64,000 bases of DNA from Patescibacteria group bacterium. Lineage in GTDB: Bacteria > Patescibacteriota > Doudnabacteria > UBA920. Position numbers and translations under genes: made by a program. Under the pieces are notes generated by a model. That model searched no databases. It was not told the origin of the DNA and saw only the letters and a program-made list of their open reading frames with translations. This document shows, piece by piece, positions 6,291 through 56,286 of this stretch; position 1 is the stretch's first letter, and every line of letters begins with the position of its first letter. The stretch spans positions 397,856 to 461,855 of the forward strand of contig DAIMCS010000001.1 in the NCBI GenBank assembly GCA_036726225.1, read 5' to 3'.

Positions 6291-6332
6291 AGTAAGAAAG
6301 TAAGTATGTAAGAATACAAGAATATAAGTATT

Positions 6333-6366
6333 AACTGCTTAGAAAAATTTCTAAGCAGTTTTTTTA
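6333..6366 (+). terminator. rho-independent terminator after ftsZ (AACTGCTTAGAAAAATTTCTAAGCAGTT + T-run)
   Basis: Perfect palindrome followed by TTTTTT. Confidence 0.75.
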
Positions 6367-6405
6367 ACTACTGTATACTTGTGTGCTTGTATTCTTAATT
6401 TACGC

Positions 6406-8021: not shown

Positions 8022-8092
8022 ATCAGTGAACAGTGCGCAGTGATCAGTGAATAGAATTTTCACTGTACACCGTCCACTGACCACTGCTCACT
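8022..8092. repeat. imperfect long palindrome containing the GTGATCAGTG/CAGTGCGCAGTG element, between nrdR and nrdJ
   Basis: AATCAGTGAACAGTGCGCAGTGATCAGTGAATAG… pairs with …TTTTCACTGTACACCGTCCACTGACCACTGCTCAC. Confidence 0.55.
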
Positions 8093-11387: not shown

Positions 11388-12092
11388 ATGAGTCCAAAGA
11401 AAAAAATTAAAATGCCCACGGAGTTTTCCGACCAGCCCAAAGGCTTGGTAATTTGTTATGTTGGCGCGGGCAAGGGAAAGACTACTGCGGCAATGGGGAT
11501 GGCTGTTCGGGCTGCGGGGGACGGCAAAAATGTTTTTATTTTGCAGTTTGTTAAAGCTTCCAACAAAAATTCGGACAAAATTAAAGACGGCGAGTGGCCG
11601 GTTTCCTCGGAGATTAATTTTTTTAATTTTTTTGAAGAGCTGTATCACCCTCCCCTAACCCCTCCCATCAAGGGAGGGGAATCAAAGTTTTCCCTCCCCC
11701 TTGTGGGGAGGGCTAGGGAGGGGGGCATAGGCAGGATTCAGAACGAGCAGGTGGGTTTAGGTTTTGTGGGAATTTTGGGAGACAAAAAAGAAAAAGACAT
11801 ACACATTCGGCAGGCAATAAAAGGCCTTGAACGCGCAAGAGAAATTATCACGAGCGGGGAATACGAACTAGTTATCCTCGATGAAATAATTTCCGCGCTA
11901 GAAGTTGGTATACTGGAAGAGCGGGACATTATTGATCTTATTAAATTAAAAGGGCCGTTACAGCATCTTGTCATTACCGGCCATAATAAATATCCAAAAA
12001 TTTTGAAAGAGTGTGACTTGGTTACAGAAATGAAAATGATTCAACATCCTTACTATAAAGGCATCCTTGCACAGAAGGGCATAGACTACTAA
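11388..12092 (+). CDS. cobO: cob(I)yrinic acid a,c-diamide / corrinoid adenosyltransferase (CobO/BtuR family) carrying an in-frame low-complexity insertion
   Basis: P-loop CYVGAGKGKTTAAMGMAVRAAGDGKNVFILQFVK is diagnostic for CobA/CobO/BtuR; C-terminal ELVILDEI and HLVITGH motifs. Confidence 0.8.
   Translation: MSPKKKIKMPTEFSDQPKGLVICYVGAGKGKTTAAMGMAVRAAGDGKNVFILQFVKASNKNSDKIKDGEWPVSSEINFFNFFEELYHPPLTPPIKGGESKFSLPLVGRAREGGIGRIQNEQVGLGFVGILGDKKEKDIHIRQAIKGLERAREIITSGEYELVILDEIISALEVGILEERDIIDLIKLKGPLQHLVITGHNKYPKILKECDLVTEMKMIQHPYYKGILAQKGIDY
11646..11730. repeat. G/C-rich nested palindromic mini-element inserted in frame inside cobO (CCCCTCCCATCAAGGGAGGGG and CCCTCCCCCTTGTGGGGAGGG)
   Basis: Encodes HPPLTPPIKGGESKFSLPLVGRAREGGIG, absent from CobO homologues; two perfect hairpins. 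Confidence 0.6.
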
Positions 12093-12207
12093 CCATTTCG
12101 ACCGTAGGGAGAAATCTGTTTGTTGAGAATTTATTATTACAGATCTCTCGCTTCGCTCGAGATGGATACCTTTTAAATGCAAAAAGGCATAGACTACTAA
12201 AATAATT

Positions 12208-12295
12208 ACGAAAGGACAAAACCAAGGGTTTTTTCCTTTCGTAGGCTATCCTTTTTCCTTTAAAGAATTTTGGAAACTGGCAAAGCCAGATTTCC
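12208..12295. repeat. copy A of a ~90-bp dispersed repeat (inverted copy at 24890-24978), containing hairpin GGAAACTGG-CAAAG-CCAGATTTCC
   Basis: About 92% identity to the reverse complement of 24890-24978. Confidence 0.7.
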
Positions 12296-12305
12296 AAAAA
12301 CAACA

Positions 12306-12530
12306 ATGAAAATTACAGTTATTGTCCATCCTAACTCCAAAAAACCAAGGGTTCAAAAAGATTTGCTTGGGACTTTGAATGTTTACGTGAGTCCGCCGCC
12401 GCTGGAAGGCAAAGCTAATAAGGCAACCGTCGAAGCTTTGGCGGGCTATTTTAAAGTAGGCAAAAGTAGAGTAAAATTAGTCCGGGGGCAAAAGTCTAAG
12501 CTTAAAACCTTTGAAATTCAGCAAGAGTAA
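12306..12530 (+). CDS. DUF167 / YggU-family small protein
   Basis: MKITVIVHPNSKK…VYVSPPPLEGKANKATVEALAGYFKV matches the UPF0235/DUF167 pattern. Confidence 0.6.
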   Translation: MKITVIVHPNSKKPRVQKDLLGTLNVYVSPPPLEGKANKATVEALAGYFKVGKSRVKLVRGQKSKLKTFEIQQE

Positions 12531-22246: not shown

Positions 22247-23917
22247 ATGAGCAAACTTATTAAATATGGCTTTGAAGCCAAACAAGCTATAAAAGCCGGT
22301 GTGGACAAGGCTGCGAATGCAGTACGTGTTACGCTTGGCCCAACGGGCAAAGCAGTAATTTTAGACAAAGGCTATGGCAGCCCGATTGTAACTGACGACG
22401 GTGTTACCGTTGCCAAAGAAATTGAACTTGAAGACAAATTTGAAAACGTTGGCGCATCACTTATTCAGGAGGTTGCCAACAAAACCAACGAAGCAGCCGG
22501 CGACGGTACCACTACCGCAACCGTATTGGCCCAAAAAATGATTGAAGAATCTTTTGAAGCCGCAGCTTTGGCCTCCACCCAGGCTAACGAAATTAAAAAG
22601 GGTATGGACAATGCCGTAAAGTTCGTAGTGGGTGAATTAAATAAATTTAAAAAAGAAGTTAAGAAAAAGGAAGAAATTGAACAAGTCGCAACCATTGCTT
22701 CTTTAGACTCCGAAGTCGGTAAGCTTATTTCGGAAGCTATGGAAGAAGTTGGACACGACGGCGTTATTACCGTTGAAGAAGGCCAGACCATTGGCATAGA
22801 AAAGGAAGTAGTTAAGGGTATGCGTTTTGACAAAGGTTTTGTAAACCCTTATATGGTAACCAACCCGGAGAAAATGGAAGCTGTTTGGGAAGACCCGTAC
22901 ATTTTAATTACTGACGAAAAAGTTTCCAGTGTCCAGGAAATTCTGCCGGTTTTGGAAAAAGTTGCCCAAAGCGGCAAGAAAGATCTGGTAATAATTGCCG
23001 ACGAAATTGAAGGCGAAGCTTTGACCACTTTTGTGCTCAACAAGCTCAAAGGCACATTTAATGTGCTTGCAGTTAAAGCCCCGGGTTTTGGCGACAGGCG
23101 CAAAGAAATGCTCCAGGACATTGCGGTTTTAACCGGCGGCAATGTAATTACTAAAGATATGGGGCTTAAATTAGATAAAGCTGAAATTATAGATTTAGGC
23201 CGTGCCAGAAAAGTTATTGCCACCAAAGAAAACACTACTATAGTAGACGGCGCAGGTGACAAAACCAAGATCGACGCCCGCGTAAGCCAAATTAAAGCCG
23301 AGCACAAAGAATCCACCTCGGATTTTGACAAAGAAAAATTACAGGAACGAATGGCCCGTTTGGCCGGCGGCGTTGGTGTAATTAAAGTTGGCGCTTTTAC
23401 AGAAACTGAAATGAAAGCCAAAAAGTTTAAAATTGAAGACGCGCTTAACGCTACCCGCGCAGCGGTTGAAGAAGGTATTGTTGCCGGCGGTGGCGCGGCT
23501 TTAGTAAAAATAGTCCCGAGCTTAGAAAAAGAAATGGATAAGGTTAAAGGCGCTCACCGAATGGGTTATAAAATTATCCGCGCCGCGCTCGAGGCTCCGT
23601 TGCGGCAAATTGCGCACAACAGCGGCGTTGAGCCAACAGGAATTATTACTTTCATTCAGAGCAAAGGCACTCATGCAGGTTATGACTTTACTAAATATGA
23701 CGGAGCCGATTGGCAGACCGGAGTTGTAGAAGATATGATGCAGGTGGGTATTGTAGACCCGCTTAAAGTTACCAGGCTGGCGTTAGAGAACGCAGTTTCA
23801 ATTGCTTCTACATTGGTGACCACAGAAGCAATAGTAGTAGACAAGCCTGAACCAAAATCTGATGCTCCTGCCGGCGGTATGCCCGGTGGTATGGGCGGTA
23901 TGGGGGGAATGTACTAA
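22247..23917 (+). CDS. groEL: chaperonin GroEL
   Basis: AGDGTTTATVLA, VAGGGAAL, C-terminal GGMGGMGGMY. Confidence 0.95.
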   Translation: MSKLIKYGFEAKQAIKAGVDKAANAVRVTLGPTGKAVILDKGYGSPIVTDDGVTVAKEIELEDKFENVGASLIQEVANKTNEAAGDGTTTATVLAQKMIEESFEAAALASTQANEIKKGMDNAVKFVVGELNKFKKEVKKKEEIEQVATIASLDSEVGKLISEAMEEVGHDGVITVEEGQTIGIEKEVVKGMRFDKGFVNPYMVTNPEKMEAVWEDPYILITDEKVSSVQEILPVLEKVAQSGKKDLVIIADEIEGEALTTFVLNKLKGTFNVLAVKAPGFGDRRKEMLQDIAVLTGGNVITKDMGLKLDKAEIIDLGRARKVIATKENTTIVDGAGDKTKIDARVSQIKAEHKESTSDFDKEKLQERMARLAGGVGVIKVGAFTETEMKAKKFKIEDALNATRAAVEEGIVAGGGAALVKIVPSLEKEMDKVKGAHRMGYKIIRAALEAPLRQIAHNSGVEPTGIITFIQSKGTHAGYDFTKYDGADWQTGVVEDMMQVGIVDPLKVTRLALENAVSIASTLVTTEAIVVDKPEPKSDAPAGGMPGGMGGMGGMY

Positions 23918-24036: not shown

Positions 24037-24534
24037 GTGAAAATGGAAAATCGGTTCAATTGGAATCCGCTAGTGAGTTTTACGGGCTTTGCGGCTTTGT
24101 TTGGGGGATTGGGCTGGCATTTTGACAACCAATACGCTCTTGTCAGCTACTGGCCGGTTCTGTCATTAGTCTTGTGGGTAATTGGAATGCGCGCGGCATT
24201 TAAAGTACGGCTCCTGCGGGGTGAGGTACCGATAATTGCCGTATGCTCAGCGTTCTTTGTTCTTGCCCTATGGAGGGATCCGGAAGCTACTCCCAAGCTG
24301 TCCGAAGGATTGCTGCTAACGGTAACTTGCGCCGGCATTTTTTTGCCGGTAATCTTTTATGCTTCATCTCGAAAAAGGGTCGAAGTGGGGCACCTTAAAG
24401 ACCCCAGAATGGTCTACGACCCCAACCGCGGCCAGATGACTTTTGACCAATGGGAACGAGAGAAGCTCAAAAAGATAAAAGATAAAAGAAAAAAGAGGAA
24501 GGAGGTTCGTATTCGCAGACGCGGGTTTTGCTAA
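24037..24534 (+). CDS. membrane protein with basic C-terminal tail, unknown
   Basis: ORF, GGGGTGAAA RBS, four hydrophobic helices. Confidence 0.45.
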   Translation: MKMENRFNWNPLVSFTGFAALFGGLGWHFDNQYALVSYWPVLSLVLWVIGMRAAFKVRLLRGEVPIIAVCSAFFVLALWRDPEATPKLSEGLLLTVTCAGIFLPVIFYASSRKRVEVGHLKDPRMVYDPNRGQMTFDQWEREKLKKIKDKRKKRKEVRIRRRGFC

Positions 24535-24542
24535 TTGTGGAT

Positions 24543-24578
24543 GGGTAACAAGGTGTTTTTTTGCCTTTGTTACCCATC
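24543..24578 (+). terminator. terminator (GGGTAACAAGGTGTTTTTTTGCCTTTGTTACCC)
   Basis: 11-bp stem. Confidence 0.65.
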
Positions 24579-24626
24579 CTTTTTGTTTTATTTAAGCCAA
24601 ATTTTGGTAAAACCTTTACATGGGGC

Positions 24627-24655
24627 TTGACAAAAGGGTAGTTTTGGTGTATACT
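24627..24655 (+). promoter_or_regulatory. consensus sigma70 promoter TTGACA-17-TATACT with no ORF downstream (candidate sRNA promoter)
   Basis: Perfect -35, 17-nt spacer, 5/6 -10. Confidence 0.55.
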
Positions 24656-24889
24656 AGCAAGTTACGATCCAAAAGTCGTAATTCTTTAAAAATCTATTAG
24701 TTTGTATGTTTTTGCAGGAGAACATACGGATTTACCCACGCACCAATTTTGGTAAATGGGTTTAGCCCTTACACCAATCTTCGTCAGATGTTCCAATACA
24801 GTCATGGTTGAGCAATAATTTTAGCGACCGAATATTGTTTTAGATAAGTTTTGATGGGGATTTGTGTAAGGGATATAATTTTAGCTTTC

Positions 24890-24978
24890 GGAAATCTGGC
24901 TTTGCCGGTTTCCGAAAATCCTTAAAGGAAAAAAGGATAGCCTATGAAAGGAAAAAAACCTTGGTTTTTGTCCTTTCA
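24890..24978. repeat. copy B (inverted) of the ~90-bp dispersed repeat; contains GGAAATCTGG-CTTTG-CCGGTTTCC hairpin and GAAAGGAAAAAAACCTTGGTTTTTGTCCTTTC hairpin
   Basis: Reverse complement matches 12208-12295. Confidence 0.7.
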
Positions 24979-25469
24979 TACATTCGATTCATGCTCCTAA
25001 TCTCGTTAACCCGAATTGGGGGCTCTAAAAAGCCGTATACTCCACAAGAATATTTTTACCAAGTTCTATTGTGTTGAGTTTACGGTTTTTTTGTTACTAC
25101 AGAAAGAAAATCCTAAATTGTTATGGCTTAATAGCTACAGATAACTACGGATTGTAAGTTCTGTAGTCATCTGTAGTGAATCTATTCTGTAGTTTTTGTA
25201 GCTACAATCGTGGACCTTAGGAGGGCAAAACTTTATAAGACACTGATGTGTCTTCGGCCTATATCTCTAAGATCCACAATTGTGTAAATAAATAACCATC
25301 CCCGACCTGATCGGGGATCCAGAAATCTGGCTTTTGCTGGATTCCCGCTTTCGCGGGAATGGAAGTATAAAAAGAAGAAATATGGCGGTAAGCTGGTTAT
25401 CCCTGCCTGCCGGCAGGTAGGTAGTTTGTTGCCAAATTTCTTCTTTTTTTATTGTGCTATAATTTATTT

Positions 25470-25736
25470 ATGGGAAAAAATCGCGGAGAAACAATTTTTA
25501 GCAACAATCCGGACAAGCCTATTATGCCACAAGACGTGAAAAAACATCACGCGAATTTGGAAAAGAAAAAATTACTTGCGGGCAGAAAACCAAAGAAATT
25601 TGTAATTCCTCCTGACCAAATGGAGAGCATAGAAGTTGACCATAAAGATATGGTTAAGCATGGCAAAGAGTTGCCGTCCGGCACCCAATCCGAAGTCGAT
25701 CATATTGAGATAAAAAGACACCAAAGCCGAACATAA
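25470..25736 (+). CDS. small basic hypothetical protein, probably leaderless (extended -10 TGCTATAAT 8 nt upstream of the ATG)
   Basis: ORF; TGnTATAAT at 25453-25461. Confidence 0.4.
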   Translation: MGKNRGETIFSNNPDKPIMPQDVKKHHANLEKKKLLAGRKPKKFVIPPDQMESIEVDHKDMVKHGKELPSGTQSEVDHIEIKRHQSRT

Positions 25737-25850: not shown

Positions 25851-26123
25851 ATGGAACTGACAAAAACTCAAGCGGCGATTTTGGATATCTTGCGGGTGAA
25901 AAAAGGGTGCACGTTTGCAACCCTTTGTCTCAAGCTTAATCTGGCACTAGAGGTGAAGTTGACGTTGGATGCAGTTAAGCAAGAACTTCACCCTCTGGAA
26001 GAGATGAAATTGGTTGTTAAAAAAATGACCAAAGATCGCGAGCTCCACTATCACCTGACCTGGCGTGGGAATAAAACCAAGGTCAGACTAAAAAAAAGCT
26101 ATCAATCACAAGGGACGGGCTAA
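25851..26123 (+). CDS. small hypothetical protein, possibly winged-helix
   Basis: ORF with GGAGGAACTA RBS. Confidence 0.4.
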   Translation: MELTKTQAAILDILRVKKGCTFATLCLKLNLALEVKLTLDAVKQELHPLEEMKLVVKKMTKDRELHYHLTWRGNKTKVRLKKSYQSQGTG

Positions 26124-26460: not shown

Positions 26461-26562
26461 GGTTGTATAAAGTATTAGGTATAAGGTATTATGTATAGGG
26501 GTTAAAAACCTTTATACTTGATACGTAATACTTAATACTTTTTTATTTGTGAAATAAAAATT

Positions 26563-27719: not shown

Positions 27720-27793
27720 TGGAGCGGGTAGGGGGAATCGAACCCCCCGCAACAGCTTGGAAAGCTGTGGTATTACCACTATACGATACCCGC
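27720..27793 (-). tRNA. tRNA-Gly (anticodon TCC), CCA encoded
   Basis: Hand-folded cloverleaf: acceptor GCGGGTA/TACCCGC, D-stem GTAT/ATAC, anticodon stem ACAGC/GCTGT with loop TTTCCAA, T-arm GGGGG-TTCGATT-CCCCC. Confidence 0.85.
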
Positions 27794-27805
27794 GCGTCGC
27801 AACTT

Positions 27806-27996
27806 GCTCCGGGCTTGCGTCCCGATCTGGAATCGGGACTTACGCCCTACGCAGTTGCTCCTCATCCCAAAAATTCCTTATTCATTGCCTTCCTGAATTT
27901 TCGGGAGCCCTTTTTATCGCACCACGCTCCGAGCTTTCGTCCCGATATGGAATCGGGACTTACGCTCTCCGCGGGTGCTCCTCTCCCCAAATTTTC
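27806..27996. repeat. two tandem ~72-bp repeat units (period 120 bp, ~80% identical), each an imperfect long hairpin centred on GTCCCGATNTGGAATCGGGAC, abutting the 5' end of tRNA-Gly
   Basis: Units at 27806-27877 and 27926-27997; no ORF. Confidence 0.7.
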
Positions 27997-28140
27997 CCTG
28001 CATTAGTCTAAACGGAAAATTTGGGCCCCCCATAATATACATCTCGTTTTTGAGAGGTCTATTATCAGCAGTAATTTTATCTTTTTTGACAGAAAAAATC
28101 AACACGCTTTTTTGACAAAAAGCCGCCGGCCGATTAATGT

Positions 28141-33088: not shown

Positions 33089-35029
33089 ATGCAAAATAAC
33101 CTTGAAAGTTTAGCCAAGCTCGTCCGATATCATTCTTTAGTTTCCACCACAGCAGCAGGCAGCGGGCATCCGACTTCGTCTTTGTCGGCTGCAGATTTAA
33201 TGACAGTTTTAATGTTTGGCACATCGCAGAATCACGCGGAAGAGACTGCGATCACGGAATCATCCGCTTCCGCTAAAGCTTCGGCGGACAGGCGCGGAGA
33301 CGGAGCTTTTTTCCATTCAGATTTAGACAACCACGAAAACCCCAACAATGACCGGTTAATTTTTAGCAAAGGGCATGCCAGCCCTTTGTTTTATGCTTTG
33401 TACGCGGCGGCCGGAAAAATTACAGAAGATGAGCTTAAAACTTTACGCAAATTTGGAAGCAAGCTGGAAGGCCACCCGACTTTGGAATTTAAATATACCG
33501 AAGTACCGACGGGTTCTTTGGGCCAGGGTTTATCAGTCGGCCTGGGTATGGCGCTTAATGCGCGCTTAGAAAAATCTACTTATAAAACTTTTGTTTTGCT
33601 CGGCGACTCGGAGATGGCCGAAGGCAGTGTGTGGGAAGCCATGGCCGCGGCATCACATTCCAATCTTTCCAATCTCGTAGCAATTTTAGATTGCAACCGG
33701 CTGGGCCAAAGAGGCGAGACTATGTATGGCCACCATACGGAAATTTACGAAGCCCGCGCCAAAGCTTTTGGCTGGGAAACCGTGGTGGTGGATGGACATA
33801 ATATTAGCGAGATCGAGAAAGCTTATAAGTTAATAAGCGAATCAGTTAATAAGCCCTTAATGATTATTGGCAAGACTTTGAAAGGCAAAGGCGTATCGTT
33901 CATAGAAGACAAAGAGGGTAAGCACGGAGTGGCGCTTAAGCCGGATGAGTTGGAAAAAGCTTTGGCAGAATTGGGGACGATTGATAAAACGGTGGGGATG
34001 GTAGCAAAACCAGATAATAACTCCCCCCAACCCCCTCTTATTTTAAGAGGGGGTGCCGAAGGCGGGGGAGTTAAATTTACAGACTACCCTAAAGACAAAC
34101 CGGTTTCCACGCGCAAGGCTTATGGCAATATTTTGCCTAGTATAATTGAAAGTTTTACCAATGCCGTGGTGCTGGATGCGGAAGTCAGCAACTCGACTTT
34201 TGCCGAAACTGTGAAAAAAACGCATCCGGAAAAGTTTTTTGAAATGTACATTGCCGAACAAAATATGGTTGGCGCGGCTTTGGGTTTTTCGCGCCGGGGC
34301 AAAATTCCTTTTGTTTCCACTTTTGCCGCGTTTTTGTCCCGCGCTTTTGACCAAATCCGCATGTCCCAGTACGCCAAAGCCAACATTAAGTTTGTCGGCT
34401 CGCACGCAGGCGTTAGCATTGGGGAAGACGGTAGCAGCCAAATGGGTTTGGAAGAAATTGCAATATTTAGAACTTTGCTGGATTCGGTTGTGCTGTATCC
34501 TTCGGACGCAATTTCAGCAGAAAAATTAGTCCACGAGGCGGCCAAGCACCAGGGTAATGTTTATATACAAACAACACGCAAAGATACAGCTATTTTATAT
34601 ACACCTACCGATGAATTTAAAATTGGCGGCTCGCGCGTATTAAAATCATCTTCGACCGATAAAGCTACAGTAGTCGCCGCTGGCGTAACTTTGCACGAAG
34701 CAATGGCTGCTTACGAAGAATTGCAAAAAGAAAATATTAACATCCGGGTAATTGACCTTTATTCTATTAAACCTCTCGATGTTGCCACGCTGCAAAAGGC
34801 TGCAACTGAAACTAAACACCTAATTACAGTCGAAGACCATTTTGTGGAAGGGGGAATTGGCGAAGCGGTTTCGTTTGCGCTCTCTGCTCTGACAGAACCT
34901 AATTTGCATTTTAGTAATTTAGCGGTAAGAAAAATGCCAAAAAGCGGCAAGCCCGAAGAACTTTTGGCATTTGAGGAAATTGATAAAAAGGCTATAATTA
35001 GGGCAGTAAAGCAGATGCTGAATAAGTAA
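33089..35029 (+). CDS. tkt: transketolase, full-length (N- and C-halves fused) with an inserted linker
   Basis: GSGHPTSSLSAADLMTVL, DRLIFSKGHASP, C-half core, EDGSSQMG motif. Confidence 0.9.
   Translation: MQNNLESLAKLVRYHSLVSTTAAGSGHPTSSLSAADLMTVLMFGTSQNHAEETAITESSASAKASADRRGDGAFFHSDLDNHENPNNDRLIFSKGHASPLFYALYAAAGKITEDELKTLRKFGSKLEGHPTLEFKYTEVPTGSLGQGLSVGLGMALNARLEKSTYKTFVLLGDSEMAEGSVWEAMAAASHSNLSNLVAILDCNRLGQRGETMYGHHTEIYEARAKAFGWETVVVDGHNISEIEKAYKLISESVNKPLMIIGKTLKGKGVSFIEDKEGKHGVALKPDELEKALAELGTIDKTVGMVAKPDNNSPQPPLILRGGAEGGGVKFTDYPKDKPVSTRKAYGNILPSIIESFTNAVVLDAEVSNSTFAETVKKTHPEKFFEMYIAEQNMVGAALGFSRRGKIPFVSTFAAFLSRAFDQIRMSQYAKANIKFVGSHAGVSIGEDGSSQMGLEEIAIFRTLLDSVVLYPSDAISAEKLVHEAAKHQGNVYIQTTRKDTAILYTPTDEFKIGGSRVLKSSSTDKATVVAAGVTLHEAMAAYEELQKENINIRVIDLYSIKPLDVATLQKAATETKHLITVEDHFVEGGIGEAVSFALSALTEPNLHFSNLAVRKMPKSGKPEELLAFEEIDKKAIIRAVKQMLNK
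34018..34073. repeat. G/C-rich palindromic mini-element in frame inside tkt (AACTCCCCCC…CCCCCTCTTATTTTAAGAGGGGG…GGGGGAGTT)
   Basis: Encodes NNSPQPPLILRGGAEGGGV in the inter-domain linker; nested hairpins. Confidence 0.55.
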
Positions 35030-35450
35030 ACAGTATACTGTATACAGTAGACAGAATATGCCAATTCAAACTTACAAAGATATTATCGCTTGGCAGAAAT
35101 CACATGAATTAGTGCTTTTTGTTTACCAGCTGACAGAAAAATTTCCGAAGAGTGAGCTCTTTGGGTTAGTCAGTCAAATGAGAAGATGCGCTGTTTCGAT
35201 ACCGTCAAATTTAGCAGAAGGTTTCAAAAGAAAACATCTAAATGACTCTCTGCATTTTTATAATATTTCCCAAGGTTCTTTAGAAGAATTGCGGTATCAA
35301 TTGTTACTTTCTAAAGACTTAAAATATATTAAAGACGAAGAATATCAGAAAGCTGAAACATTAGCTGACGAAGCAGCAAAATTAATTTATTCTTGGATAA
35401 AAGGACATAATTAATACTTGTATACAGTCTACTGTGTACTGTTTACTAAA
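35030..35450. mobile_element. IR-bounded mini-cassette carrying a four-helix-bundle (23S-rRNA-IVS-type) gene
   Basis: Left AAACAGTATACTGTATACAGTAGACAG and right CTTGTATACAGTCTACTGTGTACTGTTTAC are inverted copies of one motif flanking the gene exactly. Confidence 0.5.
35058..35414 (+). CDS. four-helix-bundle protein (TIGR02436 / 23S rRNA intervening-sequence protein family)
   Basis: IAWQKSHELVLFVYQLTEKFPKSE…IPSNLAEGF signature. Confidence 0.75.
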   Translation: MPIQTYKDIIAWQKSHELVLFVYQLTEKFPKSELFGLVSQMRRCAVSIPSNLAEGFKRKHLNDSLHFYNISQGSLEELRYQLLLSKDLKYIKDEEYQKAETLADEAAKLIYSWIKGHN

Positions 35451-41088: not shown

Positions 41089-41162
41089 TGGTCGGGCTGC
41101 TGGGAATCGAACCCAGTCTATCTGCTCCCAAAGCAGACGTACTACCGGTATACTACAGCCCG
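41089..41162 (-). tRNA. tRNA-Pro (anticodon TGG), CCA encoded
   Basis: Hand-folded: acceptor CGGGCTG/CAGCCCG, anticodon stem TCTGC/GCAGA with loop TTTGGGA, T-arm CTGGG-TTCGATT-CCCAG. Confidence 0.85.
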
Positions 41163-41203: not shown

Positions 41204-41232
41204 TTGACAAATTTAGGGAGTTATATTATAAT
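41204..41232 (+). promoter_or_regulatory. consensus sigma70 promoter TTGACA-17-TATAAT about 545 nt upstream of the surface-protein gene
   Basis: Perfect hexamers, 17-nt spacer. Confidence 0.6.
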
Positions 41233-41776: not shown

Positions 41777-44700
41777 ATGCAAAATTCTTTAGCAAAGAAA
41801 TTCTTTGCTGTAGGATCTGCGGTGGCAATGACTTTGTCCTTAGCCGCGCCGTTTGCAGCGCAAGCTGCAGCGCACGCTGCCGGGACTAACGTTTCCACCT
41901 CCGACGGTACAGTCTGGTTTATTACACCAGAAGGTACCCGCAGAGCCTACACTTCTGCCGGCGCTTTCCTTTCCTACGGCTTCAATTCTTGGAGCCAGGT
42001 GGTAGCTGCCAATGCAGATGACCTGAGCTTGCCTGCCGGATCGTTCATTCCTCCTCAGGACGGAACGGTTTTCTGCGCAACTGCCACAAAAGGCAGTGAC
42101 GTAGCAGGTGAATGCTCTTTGGTAACTGCCGGTATGAAAGCCGCTTTTACTTCAGCTGCTGTGTTTGCCGGTCTTGGCTTTAGCTTCGCTAACGCCGAGT
42201 ACGGTGATTCTTCTTTCTTAAATAAGACTGTAGACATCAACAGCTCAACCGAAGCCCACAAAACCGGCGTGCTTGTTAACAATAACGGCACTGTCCAGTT
42301 AGTTGGCGCTACCGGTTTGCTTGGTATTCCAAGCTTAGACGTCTTTAACACCTGGGGCTATTCCTTTGCCAATGTCGTTCCGGCTAACGCCGCCGACAAG
42401 GCAATGACCCAGACCGGTGTTATGCAAGCCAGAACACCTGGCCAATTAAACCCGGTATGGACAGTTGGAACTCAGCCTCCGCCTCCGGTTGGTTCGGTCA
42501 CGGTCTCTTTGGCCTCCGACAACCCGGCTTCTGGCAGCATTGTTGCCAGTTCTTCAGCTGTAACTTTGGCTAAATTCAACTTCTCCGGAAGCGGAACAGT
42601 CAGCCAAATCCAGCTTAAGAGAATTGGTGTCTCTGCAGACTCTGTTCTTTCTAACGTTTACCTCTACGACGGAGCTATGCGCTTAACTGATGCAGCTTCT
42701 GTCGGCGGTAGCAGCCTAATTAGCTTCAATACCCCAGGCGGTATTTTTACAGTTTCAGGCAGCAAGACCATTTCCGTGGTCGCTGAAATTGCAGGCACAG
42801 CCACTTCCGGCCAAACTGTAGGCGTTCAGCTTACCGGTTTTGCCGTAGCTGGTTATAGCTTGGGCAGCGCCAGTGTTTCCGGTAACTTACACACCGTTGC
42901 TTCAGTCAGCGATCTCGCTACTGTTGACTTCGGTACTGTTACCCCGACTGGCCAGACTTTGGACGCTGCTGCGGGCTTAGAAGTCTTCCGCAGTTCAGTA
43001 AGCATTGGCACCCGCGATGTAACCTTGTCCCGTTTGGCAGTTCGCCAAATTGGATCAGTCAACTACAGCGATATCAAGAACTTAGTCTTGAAGGTAGACG
43101 GTACAACTCTTGGTTCAGTAGCCGGTTTGGATGTAAATGGCTACGCCATGTTCTCCTTCTCACCTACTACTCTTAAGAGCGGCACTCGCATTATCACCAT
43201 TTTGGGTGACATTGTTGGCGGCGCTACCAGGACTTTCCAGTTCCAAATTCGCAACAAGGTTGATGTCGACTTTACTGACACTAACTACAACGTAGTGGTT
43301 TCTCCTGTTGACACCTTCCCTGTAGGTTCAGGTTCTGCTAACACCATTAGAGAAGGTAGCCTTATTATTCAAAAAGCTACCGACACTCCGTCTGGCAACG
43401 TAACCGATGGTGCTACCAATGTAAAATTGGCCAAGTTCACAGCTAACGCTTATGGTGAACCTATGAAGATCGAAACCTTAACTGCTGCTGCAAGCTCTTC
43501 TGACACCAGCGTTACTTCGCTCCGAAATGGTAAAATTATGATCAACGGGGTTCAGTATGGTTCTACAGCCACTTTGGCCCAGTGTCTTGCATGTACCACC
43601 ACCGGTGGTACCTCTTACACTTTGAACTATACTGTGCAGCCGGGTACTGCGGTTACTATCGAAGTTTATGCCGATATGTATGACAATGACATTGGTGGAA
43701 ACAACCTTTCCAACGGCGACACCGTTACTGCTTACTTAATTGTTGGTTCTAACAACGTCCAAAAGATGACCTCTTTGGGCTATGTCAACGTTCCGTCTTC
43801 CGCAGTTTCGGGTAACCCGATTACCAACGTAACCGGCAGCGTAACCTTTGCCAAGAACCAAACTTACTCTAACCACGCTATTCCTCTCCCACAAACTGGC
43901 TACAAGATTGGTGCCTTCACCTTAGTCGGTAGCACCTCGGAAGATGTGACTATCTCGAGCATCTCAGTTCGCGATGTTTCATCCACCAGCTTGACCAGCT
44001 TGTACAACATAAAAGTATTGGTTAATGGCAGCATATTTGGAGCTCAGGCTAGCAGCATCTCCGTTGGAGGTACTTCTACCTTCTCCAGTACTTTGAACCT
44101 TGCCCAAGGAATGACTGTTCCGGTCGAAGTTTATGCTGACATAAACTTACCAACAGCCGGCTATGCCGCCGACACCTTCGGTGCCCAGGTTTCGATTTCC
44201 GGTACAGCTGTTAATTCCAGCGCTTCCATTGCTGCTTCTGCAGCCGGTCAGACTTTGACCATTGGTAGCGCCACCTTAACTGCGGCTCAAGATCCGTCTA
44301 CTCCGGTTGCTGCCATTACGGCCGGCAATCAGACCAAGACTGCTGCTGCCTTTAAGTGGACTTCAGCTAACGACCAATTTACGATTTCTGAACTCGTAAT
44401 TAGTGTCGCGGCCGTCACCACTGTTCAAAATGTCATAATCAAGGATGGCAGCAACGTCATTGCTACTCAGCCAGGCGCTGCTTCTACCACCTTCAGCAAT
44501 TTGAGCATTTCAGTCCCTGCCAATGCCACCAAGATCTTAACTGTAGAATTACAGTTGGGCGGTGTGGGAACCGGCGCGGGTACTTCTGGTGAAAACGTCT
44601 TCGTCACCTTGCACAGCTACAAGAAAGCTCCGGCTTCATCCGGCACAGTCTCTACCACAACTGTTGGTAACATTTCGGGTAATGCCTTGTATGTTTACAA

Positions 44701-53992: not shown

Positions 53993-55048
53993 CTAGCCGC
54001 GGGACATTTTTTCATATACTTTTTTTGTTTCTTCCAGCATTTTTTCCCGGGTAAACAGCTTTGACCGCGCAAGGGCCTTTTGGGATAACAGGTCGGCCAG
54101 TTCCTGGTCCGTAATTATTTTATCTACCGCTTCTACCAGGGCTTTAGGGTTTTCCGGTTCCACTAACAACCCGGCATCGCCCAAAGCTTCCGGAATGCCG
54201 CCAACTCTGGTTGCCACAATCGGCAAGCCGGCGGCCATGGCTTCTAGAACTACAAAAGGGAAGCCTTCTTTTCTGGAAGGTACGGCTAAAATGTCAAAAG
54301 CTTTTAAGTAAATTTGGGCATCTTTTACAAACCCCAGGTATTTAATGTTGTCTGTGGATTTTTTTTCATCCGACACGTTACCAATAATCACGGTTAAACA
54401 GTTGGACGACAGCGCTTTTTCCATTATATCCAAACCTTTGGTTTTGTACTCGTTAGCTATGGTCACCACAAGTTCTTTGTCTAAAGGCAGCCCAAGTTTT
54501 TGTCTGGCTTCCTGCCGCGGTAAAAAATTTATCTGGTCAATGCCGTTATGGATGGTGGAAATTTTGTCAGGCAAGGTTAAGTTATAGTCCATTGCGGACT
54601 TTCTGTCTGCTTCGGACACGCAAATAATGTAGTCGCGGTAAGAAGAAGCCGCTTTTTCCAAAGCTAAATAAAAAGATTTTAAAATCCAAGGCAGCGGCTC
54701 GTTGAAAATAAACCCGTGCGCGGTAAATACGACTTTAGTTTTAAGGCCTATGGCGGCAAAGCTGCCCACCACTCCGGCTTTGCTGGAATTTAAATGGACA
54801 ATCTCGGGCTTGTAGCTTTTAATTAGCTGCCGAATTTCCCAAACCGCCATAAAATCGTGCCAGGGGTTAATGGCTCGCCTTAAATGTTTTAGCGTAAAAG
54901 TATAAAGGCCCAAAGCGCGGGCTTCGTCAAACAGCTTGGGACTTTCCTCACCGGCGGCAATTGCGCCTTCAAAATGTTTGGCCAGATCCAGTGTGTATTT
55001 TTGGGCCCCGCCACCGTCAGCTTGGGTTATTATGTATAGTATTTTCAT
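53993..55048 (-). CDS. glycosyltransferase family 4 (GT-B)
   Basis: N-terminal GGAQ… and C-terminal EGFPFVVLEAMAAGLP motif. Confidence 0.8.
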   Translation of the reverse strand: MKILYIITQADGGGAQKYTLDLAKHFEGAIAAGEESPKLFDEARALGLYTFTLKHLRRAINPWHDFMAVWEIRQLIKSYKPEIVHLNSSKAGVVGSFAAIGLKTKVVFTAHGFIFNEPLPWILKSFYLALEKAASSYRDYIICVSEADRKSAMDYNLTLPDKISTIHNGIDQINFLPRQEARQKLGLPLDKELVVTIANEYKTKGLDIMEKALSSNCLTVIIGNVSDEKKSTDNIKYLGFVKDAQIYLKAFDILAVPSRKEGFPFVVLEAMAAGLPIVATRVGGIPEALGDAGLLVEPENPKALVEAVDKIITDQELADLLSQKALARSKLFTREKMLEETKKVYEKMSRG

Positions 55049-55206
55049 TTGATGATTTAAAAATAGAATATTTAAAGATAGAAAATTGCGTAATCTTTAA
55101 ATCTTTAAATTTTCAATCTTTCAATTATTGTTGATTGATTTATTGCCGTATTTATGGTAATTTATCTTAGTATAAAGTATAACGAATAAAGTATAAAGGC
55201 CTAAAA

Positions 55207-56223
55207 ATGTCAGATAAAAAAATTGCATTAGTTACGGGTATCACCGGCCAGGACGGTTCTTACCTGGCGGAATTACTACTCTCTAAGGGCTACGAAGTCC
55301 ACGGCATTGTGCGCCGCGCCAGTGTTTTTAACACCGAAAGAATAGACCATATTTACCAGGATCCGCACGAGTCCCACAGGCGGCTGTTTTTACATTACGG
55401 CGACTTGTCCGACGCTTCCAATTTAAATCAGCTGCTTAAAACCATTAAGCCGGACGAAATTTACAACCTTGGCGCGCAAAGCCACGTAAAGGTGAGTTTT
55501 GAAATTCCGGAATACACGGCCAACGTGGACGCGCTTGGGACTTTAAGATTGCTGGACGCAATTCGGGAAAGCGGCATCCCAACCAAACTTTACCAGGCCG
55601 GGTCTTCGGAAATGTTTGGGGATGTTTTAGAAACCCCGCAAAAAGAAACTACGCCTTTTAACCCCGCCTCTCCATACGGCGCTTCCAAAGTTTTTGGTTT
55701 TCACATTTGTAAAAATTACCGTATTGCTTACAATATGTTTATTTGTAACGGCATTTTGTTTAACCACGAATCTCCCAGGCGCGGCAAAACTTTTGTCACC
55801 CGTAAAATTACCACGGGCATTGCCGCAATTTTAGCCGGCCGGCAGGAAAAAATATATTTGGGAAATTTAGACGCCAAAAGGGACTGGGGTTTTGCTCCGG
55901 AATATGTTGAGGCTATGTGGAAAATGCTGCAGCAGGAAAAACCGGACGACTATGTTATTGCAACAGCTCAGACCCACTCCATTCGCGAATTTTTAGACGA
56001 AGCTTTTAAGCTGGTAAATATTGACAATTGGGAAAAATACATTGGCGTAGACCCGGCATACTACCGCCCCCAGGAAGTTAATTTGCTTTTGGGAGACCCT
56101 TCCAAAGCCAAAAAAAACTTAGGTTGGGAGCCAAAAGTTAAATTTAAAGAGCTTGTCAAAATAATGCTTGAGGCAGACCTAAAAGAAGCCGGCCTTGATC
56201 CGGTAAGATATTTAAAGATTTAA
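55207..56223 (+). CDS. gmd: GDP-mannose 4,6-dehydratase
   Basis: [28 protein letters not shown]…, YGASK. Confidence 0.9.
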
Positions 56224-56286
56224 AAAAAGAAAAATAAAAAGATTAATAATTTTTGAATTTTAAATTTTTCTATTTTTAAATTATTT

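Follow-up and report, generated by a model that had tools for sequence, protein, structure and literature searches.

A candidate Doudnabacteria-specific structured RNA gene located downstream of groEL

Large structured RNAs of bacteria such as OLE, ROOL, GOLLD and raiA are several hundred nucleotides (nt) long and restricted to particular lineages, with many hairpins, conserved stems and junctions, and transcription signals of their own. The oapA gene adjoins OLE. Genomes of the candidate phyla radiation (CPR)/Patescibacteria are ~1 Mb in size with very little non-coding DNA, and to our knowledge almost nothing is known of CPR RNAs beyond rRNA, tRNA, RNase P, tmRNA and signal recognition particle (SRP) RNA. 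Here, we describe a locus with likewise these features at positions 24535-25469 of a 64,000 nt stretch of DNA (the window) from a Patescibacteria genome of the Doudnabacteria lineage (assembly GCA_036726225.1, contig DAIMCS010000001.1, positions 397,856 to 461,855). Our analysis suggests, with a probability of roughly 0.78, that this region is the gene of a structured non-coding RNA (ncRNA) that has no Rfam match, is specific to Doudnabacteria as far as sampled, and is transcribed on the + strand from its own near-consensus promoter. In view of the near-consensus promoter, the fixed synteny, the single copy per locus, the sequence conservation of its junctions and stems and the fact that no downstream gene is conserved, the RNA is most likely stable, trans-acting and probably protein-bound, as opposed to a leader of the next gene.

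A conserved gene-free locus between groEL and rpmF

The region is flanked by a 165-aa hydrophobic open reading frame (ORF; 24037-24534) and an 88-aa ORF starting at 25470. An initial sequence-only reading had proposed that it contains no credible ORF, and every feature described there was found in place. The longest frame of the ORF list within 24535-25469 is a 71-aa ORF with a TTG start, and the public annotation of the identical contig leaves the gap empty, with zero gene calls. The GroEL gene is located at 22247-23917; its product is 100% identical to a protein from a Joint Genome Institute (JGI) soil metagenome contig, while the closest named relatives by GroEL are all ‘Candidatus Doudnabacteria’ (CPR/Patescibacteria). 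We retrieved the loci of GroEL homologues (79-89% identical; relatives' loci are numbered L003-L035), and each fetched locus contains a gene-free gap of 670-1150 bp after a small ORF downstream of groEL. Alignment of these relatives revealed conserved islands with unalignable stretches between them. We used a degenerate pattern, based on the best-conserved island and located within the 3' arm of the hairpin H6 described below, to collect further homologues; it matched 8 GTDB species genomes and 15 JGI metagenome contigs, once each. Combined with the window and the GroEL-fetched loci, this yields 22 distinct sequences. Two loci (L033 and L034) were recovered via GroEL only, independent of the pattern, and share both the promoter and the conserved blocks.

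The synteny groES-groEL-(small variable ORF)-RNA-(variable small ORFs)-rpmF-nusB-hup is observed wherever the flanks are long enough, with the RNA locus present between groEL and rpmF in every relative sampled and in one copy per locus. The conserved core has zero matches in IMG/VR, GenBank phages or PLSDB plasmids.

The sequence-only reading placed a TTGACA-17-TATACT promoter at 24627-24655, and this is borne out: the predicted sigma-70-type promoter (+ strand) has 11/12 consensus positions and a putative start at ~24660-24662. The pattern TTGACA-N16-18-TATAVT occurs at 2 sites in 64 kb, compared to 0.05 expected. Among the collected sequences, TTGACAA-N16-GTATACT is kept in 20 of 22, located 243-517 nt upstream of the collection pattern, and it is also kept in L033 and L034. 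The predicted promoter is therefore conserved among relatives, as for a stand-alone ncRNA gene. An A/T-rich element, (C)TTAAATAAGCCAAA, at 24590-24612 lies ~15-40 nt upstream of the -35 box, and is found at the same position in L003, L005, L007, L033 and L034; possible roles are those of an UP element or a regulator site. Further upstream, a terminator-like hairpin of the 24037-24534 gene occupies 24539-24589 (+ strand), with 13 perfect pairs between GGATGGGTAACAA and TTGTTACCCATCC and with TTTTTGTTTT on its 3' side. Apart from the promoter of the RNA, the window contains a single near-consensus promoter (TTGACA-17-TATAAT, 41204-41232, + strand), which adjoins a tRNA-Pro gene (41089-41162, - strand) and is upstream of a 1146-aa ORF at 41777.

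Neither a protein product nor a known RNA family accounts for the conservation. Block 1, the most conserved segment, opens with an ATG and an open frame in the window (part of the 71-aa ORF). This frame is broken in about half of the lineages by a 1-nt indel in the H4 loop (TTAA-ACCGG versus GGAATACCGG), with the nucleotides downstream equally conserved in the other frame, and a coding reading was rejected on these grounds. Hence, the locus lacks a conserved frame, its ORFs being ≤71 aa and uncalled in public records. A search of the window with Rfam 15 at the gathering threshold returned only two tRNAs, and nothing relevant was found at E ≤ 10 over 24300-25700, where the best permissive match was a plant miRNA model on the CTGTAG hairpin (24 bits versus a threshold of 60). 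Nothing relevant was obtained for the compact homologues L020, L025 and L032 either. The covariance-model scan proposed for 6S, tmRNA, RNase P and SRP RNA produced no family match: the 6S model RF00013 had none even at E ≤ 10, and ARAGORN detected no tmRNA. The riboswitch, leader and large-ncRNA families of Rfam 15 also gave no match, and no description of the RNA was found in the literature.

Architecture and covariation of the RNA

Folding of the 811 nt of the + strand gives -295.8 kcal/mol compared to -193.9 ± 7.6 for shuffled sequences (z = -13.4), while the - strand has z = -11.4 versus shuffles. The conserved G·U pairs, the covariance-model scores of block 2 and the folding energy of block 3 (both blocks described below) make it clear that the + strand is the RNA strand. 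Transcription would start near 24661, and the first part of the RNA (RNA1, ~24661-25092) would be ~432 nt long here, or 437 nt from the base after the -10 box, compared to 243-516 nt in relatives. RNA1 consists of H1, a single-stranded linker, H2, H3, a variable point V1, H4 and H6, in that order.

We determined covariation in RNA1 for 18 real sequences using the RNAalifold structure, 500 shuffles and slid controls. The structure contains 70 pairs with 95.3% of cells paired. Changes on both sides were found in 25 of the 70 pairs, compared to 9.8 ± 2.2 in shuffles, none of which (0/500) reached 25. The slid controls were 37-49% paired, with 4-10 pairs changed on both sides. A similar analysis of block 2, with 21 sequences aligned to its covariance model R1 and 500 shuffles, gave 35 pairs with 90% of cells paired (slid controls, 38-49%). 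Double changes occur in 25 of the 35 pairs versus 14.3 in shuffles (0/500 reach 25), with a covariation score of 0.47 versus 0.19 in shuffles. Both RNA1 and block 2 thus display the compensatory substitutions of an ncRNA gene. The proposal that the region holds one or more small RNA genes is supported by the promoter, a terminator-like hairpin and a core kept with compensatory changes in ~22 lineages.

The 5' hairpin H1 (24660-24683) starts almost directly after the putative transcription start (~6 nt past the -10 box), and is a hairpin in every lineage with a stem sequence that is different each time. On its 3' side is the conserved, A/U-rich and single-stranded linker UUAACAA..AAUA (24684-24698), which leads to H2 (24699-24732) with a conserved apex, UUUUU(A/G)CAGGA(G/A)A, and both-side changes in 8/14 pairs of its helices 1-2. 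This is followed by a small lineage-specific hairpin insertion (CCCAC..CCAAUUUUGG..UGGG, 24734-24761) that is missing from most relatives, with L021 having a different hairpin at this point. H3 (24766-24872) is a rod-like hairpin of ~107 nt with a conserved stem, CUAAUCUUC / GAUGGAGAUUGG. Its outer stem displays compensatory double changes in 12/21 pairs, and the rod (~100-108 nt) forms in 17 lineages.

Block 1 (24989-25092) comprises H4 (24993-25023) and H6 (25029-25088). It occurs in one copy per locus with a mean column identity of 86% and many conserved G·U pairs. H6 is a long, interrupted 22-bp hairpin with a GC core (25032-25085) and an A-tract upstream, leading into a 7-U run (25086-25092) that constitutes the terminator-like 3' end of RNA1. 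The arrangement GCCGUA../..UACGG followed by U5-U7 is present in all lineages, consistent with a predicted intrinsic terminator. No long-range helices were detected, and the RNA resembles a string of rods. The base of H6 (AGCCGUAU...UACGGUU) is similar to domain V of group II introns; this likeness was judged coincidental, as the length is wrong, other intron domains are lacking and the RNA has its own promoter. A CsrB/RsmZ-type sponge was likewise rejected, since each RNA has only one conserved ACAGGA loop (in H2) in place of many GGA loops.

Block 2 (25197-25295) is a conserved rod of ~100 nt composed of P1a, a bulged C, P1b (GUGGG/CCCAC), P1c, P2 (GGGC/GCCU), an asymmetric loop (AAAACAUUUU) and a variable hairpin P3. 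The same fold was obtained in 20 lineages, with each sequence folded alone. Covariance model R1 finds exactly one match per locus in 23/24 sources, with + strand scores of 56-105 bits across loci compared to 17-46 bits for the - strand (82 versus 25 bits in the window). The spacer before block 2 holds part of another block-2-like start (CAACGTGGGCCTAACCCCGG...) in L024, pointing to local duplication of block 2 in that lineage. Block 2 directly abuts the H6 U-run (0-4 nt) in L007, L020, L021 and L032, leaving no room for a promoter, and in at least 10 lineages a second terminator-like hairpin is located ~30-150 nt past block 2. Together these observations suggest block 2 is co-transcribed with RNA1.

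In the window, block 2 is followed by the lineage-specific stretch V3 (25300-25360), which cannot be aligned to relatives and contains three small hairpins (CCCCGA..UCGGGG; AUCCAG..CUGGAU; UUCCCGC..GCGGGAA). The further hairpins of the sequence-only reading, CCCCGACCTGATCGGGG (25300-25316) and ATTCCCGCTTTCGCGGGAAT (25341-25360), are both located here. Block 3 (25366-25451) is a long hairpin with a GUUAUC apical motif and, in this genome, an additional inner hairpin; a T-run (25444-25450) forms the end of the 3' arm. Block 3 has a minimum free energy (MFE) of -43.9 kcal/mol on the + strand versus -31.3 on the - strand. The T-run is the probable 3' end of a long transcript. In the resulting model, a short isoform (RNA1) would end at the H6 hairpin and U-run at 25092, while read-through would yield a long isoform of ~790 nt that also includes block 2 and stops at ~25451, with the block 3 hairpin and T-run. 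Positions 25455-25472 (+ strand), which contain an extended -10 box (TGcTATAAT, 25455-25463) and the start codon of the 88-aa ORF (ATG at 25470), are assigned to the next transcription unit, not the RNA. With the box 6 nt upstream of this ATG and no Shine-Dalgarno sequence, the mRNA of the 88-aa ORF is probably leaderless.

The ORFs on either side of the RNA, from groEL to rpmF, vary by lineage across L003-L035, which places the RNA locus in a small hypervariable island. Many of the downstream ORFs of relatives encode hydrophobic peptides of 40-60 aa. The 88-aa ORF at 25470 and a 90-aa ORF (25851-26123) lack both a Pfam match and a homologue in the loci of relatives; when the flanking ORFs of 165, 88 and 90 aa were searched by tblastn, relatives gave no match, and Pfam gave zero matches among the flanking ORFs tested (8 in relatives, 3 in the window). 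One flanking ORF in L025 is PadR-like as judged by eye from its sequence, not by Pfam.

Hairpin insertions at fixed points of the RNA

The RNA core accepts insertions at fixed points, namely after H2 and at V1, V2 and V3. The V1 insertion (24878-24980) folds into three hairpins and is copy A of a dispersed repeat of ~100 nt. The inverted repeat noted previously is real and slightly longer than first reported, with 24878-24980 being the reverse complement of copy B at 12207-12307 (- strand, ~86% identical). The cassette has an MFE of -38.2 kcal/mol (z = -5.0), and between copies A and B two stem pairs are exchanged with full compensation (C-G to U-A and U-A to C-G), while one G·U pair is replaced by A-U. 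It is absent from relatives: nothing is inserted at this point in L003, L007, L012, L015, L030, L032, L033 and L034, while several others have a hairpin CUACAGAUA...UAUCUGUGG in its place. An nhmmer search recovered the two window copies only and none in the relatives' loci, and an exact degenerate pattern had no match in 185,579 GTDB species genomes or IMG/VR. We therefore consider the cassette to be a young, species-specific hairpin insertion on sequence grounds; no clear terminal inverted repeats were seen. Beside copy B, the last 24 nt and stop of a CobA/BtuR-family gene (11388-12092) at 12069-12092 are repeated at 12179-12200, and the 86 nt between them (12093-12178) have inverted ends, CCATTTCGA and TCGAGATGG. 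The 12069-12200 element resembles a small insertion that has duplicated its target, and directly adjoins copy B, which abuts the ATG (12306) of a DUF167/YggU gene.

The V2 spacer (25093-25196) holds the CTACAG/CTGTAG ‘array’. The hexamer cluster was found where the sequence-only reading had put it, with five exact copies in 96 nt (25097 and 25135 on the - strand; 25161, 25171 and 25187 on the + strand) and two near-copies, CTACGG (25146) and TTGTAG (25196). The exact GTAGCTAC is found only at the 3' end (25197-25204), the 5' side being AGCTACAG. The hexamer frequency in the whole window is above background, at 31 copies versus 14.1 ± 3.8 expected, and the CTGTAG locus was the sole cluster flagged when the real window was scanned for any hexamer. 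Sequences simulated with a second-order Markov model also contain 0-4 such clusters per 64 kb, thus clustering alone is a weaker argument than the helix structure and the comparative data.

V2 folds as three nested helices in which the same hexamer pairs throughout, with an outer stem of CUACAG 25097 and CUGUAG 25187, an MFE of -34.7 kcal/mol and z = -4.7. Positions 25135-25151 pair with 25160-25176 over 17 nt that are 88% complementary, ‘spacers’ included. The element lies between 14-nt direct repeats, TTTTTGTTACTACA (25088-25101) and TTTTTGTAGCTACA (25193-25206), which duplicate the junction that doubles, in compact lineages, as terminator U-run and block 2 5' arm. V2 length ranges from 0 to 521 nt across lineages, with the 0-4 nt spacers of the four compact loci named above and 35-521 nt elsewhere. 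It consists of ordinary hairpins in some lineages, of four or five CGCUGA copies facing UCAGCG copies in L026 and L027, and of CGAAU copies facing AUUCG copies in L034 and L019. As the motif varies between lineages while the architecture is constant, the origin of these elements is probably structural or mutational as opposed to reflecting a conserved DNA-binding protein.

Hairpins of a reiterated motif also occur in intergenic DNA at gene ends elsewhere in the window: at 6300-6403 (AAGAAUA.., z = -8.8), at 8024-8086 (CAGUG x4 facing CACUG x3, z = -4.5) and at 26469-26541, just after rpmF (GUAUAA.., z = -7.3, then six T's). All three share the construction of the CTGTAG element; weaker examples are present at 55047-55128 and 56218-56281. 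We interpret the V1 and V2 elements as expansion or insertion hairpins, a type that is common in the intergenic DNA of this genome, and not as binding-site arrays. Other repeats in the window include 29-nt inverted ACAGTA-type arrays (35025-35053 and 35419-35447, 83% complementary) on either side of a 118-aa ORF (35058-35414). In addition, two direct repeats of 81 nt (27797-27877 and 27917-27997) with 83% identity directly precede tRNA-Gly (27720-27793) on the - strand; both contain a GTCCCGAT..ATCGGGAC hairpin, and neither has an Rfam match at the gathering threshold.

Alternative explanations and relation to known systems

Several observations weigh against a dedicated ncRNA gene with the transcript model proposed above. 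Most homologues were collected by a pattern in the H6 3' arm, which inflates the apparent conservation of H6, and all sequences derive from one clade (GroEL 77-89% identical), a relatedness that inflates shuffle-based statistics. The slid controls, the pair-type counts and the loci L033 and L034 are less affected by these biases. Block 3 homologues (UUAU apex, T-run) were found in 9-10 lineages only, this one included, and the transcript ends and two-isoform model are read from sequence features. A strong intrinsic terminator at H6 sits uneasily with co-transcription of block 2. Furthermore, -10-like boxes are located directly upstream of block 2 in L017, L019, L027 and L030, which are lineages with a V2 insert, and block 2 could therefore be a separate small RNA. 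Finally, a conserved neighbouring protein was not found by tblastn of the flanking ORFs or by Pfam.

Of the other explanations, a cis-regulatory leader (riboswitch or attenuator), in which the H6 terminator gates read-through into block 2 and the small genes downstream, appears unlikely. The order of promoter, conserved folded RNA, terminator hairpin with U-run and further conserved sequence does resemble an attenuator, and most lineages show complementarity between ACAGGAGAA of the H2 loop and UUCUCCUGU of the H6 3' arm, as might be expected of an anti-terminator. However, this complementarity is weaker in the window (one mismatch, one G·U) and lost in L033, and we do not claim an H2-H6 pairing, whether as anti-terminator or pseudoknot. 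The genes a leader would control vary, the 88-aa and 90-aa ORFs having no counterpart in relatives by tblastn, and many lineages have both a second terminator and a new promoter between block 2 and the gene that follows, roles taken in the window by block 3 and the TGcTATAAT box. Insertions of 30-200 nt are tolerated at several points, which is unusual for an aptamer, and no riboswitch or leader family of Rfam matches. A replication origin or iteron region, suggested by the short repeats in an AT-rich (35-40% GC) non-coding stretch, has next to no probability. There is no GC-skew switch, as the skew is positive throughout 22-28 kb and the cumulative skew climbs steadily. No DnaA box (TTATCCACA, ≤1 mismatch) is found in 24535-25470, with 18 in the whole window versus 14.1 expected, and neither dnaA nor dnaN is found in the vicinity. 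Iterons would be same-sense, whereas the repeats here form the arms of helices.

The sequence-only reading also envisaged the CTGTAG/CTACAG cluster as a multi-site operator for a sequence-specific (dimeric) DNA-binding protein. We consider this quite improbable, even though five exact and two near-copies lie within 110 bp in both orientations and at least five relatives (L016, L017, L021, L022 and L028) have a related motif, CTACAGATA / TATCTGTGG, in their V1 hairpin. The copies are arms of nested helices whose intervening sequence is complementary as well, and neither motif nor arrangement is kept at this place in relatives, where the spacer is nearly absent in four lineages and elsewhere holds unrelated hairpins or arrays of other motifs. 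Similar hairpins of other reiterated motifs exist in the window, and no gene of a DNA-binding protein is conserved nearby, as judged by tblastn and Pfam of the flanking ORFs. It is highly improbable that the locus is an insertion hotspot of miniature mobile or palindromic elements with no RNA function of its own. Such a hotspot would fit the lineage-specific insertions V1, V2, V3 and the hairpin after H2, the resemblance of the 14-nt repeat flanking V2 to a target duplication, and the second copy of the cassette 12.6 kb away, beside another insertion-like element. Between these insertions, however, the core is conserved in sequence, order and structure, with compensatory changes, promoter and synteny retained across the sampled GroEL range, and a hotspot therefore explains the variable parts only.

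With a structured ncRNA gene as the preferred explanation, a non-coding locus of 0.4-0.9 kb at the same place throughout a lineage, with promoter and compensatory helices, is a strong candidate for a functional RNA that annotation pipelines have missed. It explains the recurrent annotation gap downstream of groEL in Doudnabacteria metagenome-assembled genomes, and gives metatranscriptome mapping, structure probing and the search for partner proteins a concrete target. The locus also illustrates how hairpin insertions build up at defined points of an RNA gene. More tentatively, and as a possibility we would rate well short of even odds, the locus may represent a new class of large modular RNA (about 350-800 nt) on which Doudnabacteria depend for a ribonucleoprotein function in housekeeping or symbiosis. 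In that case, an undescribed kind of self-expanding hairpin, with arms made of one reiterated 5-7-nt motif that permits many alternative or intermolecular pairings, would have colonised the fixed insertion points of the RNA.

Comparison with described systems indicates where likeness ends. TIGR arrays consist of 36-nt units with two alternating 8-12-nt repeats (box C/D) and 9-nt spacers, and are reported from phages and parasitic bacteria as 5-15 repeated units beside a Nop-domain Tas gene (PMC12045711). V2 resembles these in that very short motifs recur every ~9-12 nt with variable sequence between them. A TIGR array was rejected, since V2 has one hexamer and its complement at irregular spacing (10, 16 and 38 nt) with arms that pair mutually, and Nop-domain proteins are absent from the vicinity, with no Pfam match among the flanking proteins. 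Like REP/BIME, BOX and Correia/NEMIS-type elements, the cassette and the reiterated-motif hairpins are short, structured, intergenic and lineage-specific insertions, some with short flanking direct repeats as in REP/BIME-type elements. In contrast to these, the cassette has two copies in 64 kb and none in GTDB species genomes or IMG/VR, and the arrayed hairpins each use a different 5-7-nt motif with no common family consensus.

The 6S RNA gene (ssrS) is likewise a stand-alone gene with a very strong sigma-70 promoter and a long irregular rod, which would correspond to H3 (~107 nt) here. The ends of the Doudnabacteria RNA form no closing stem, a central open-promoter-like bubble was not identified, and the conserved H1, H2, H4, H6 and block 2 have no 6S counterpart. 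Compared to OLE, ROOL, GOLLD and raiA, the RNA has no sequence or structure match in Rfam 15, is built as a string of rods and, in contrast to OLE, has no conserved partner-protein gene beside it. It further differs from all four in its unusually many lineage-specific hairpin insertions. It is nevertheless an RNA of the kind these represent, the lineage-restricted large structured RNAs of bacteria.

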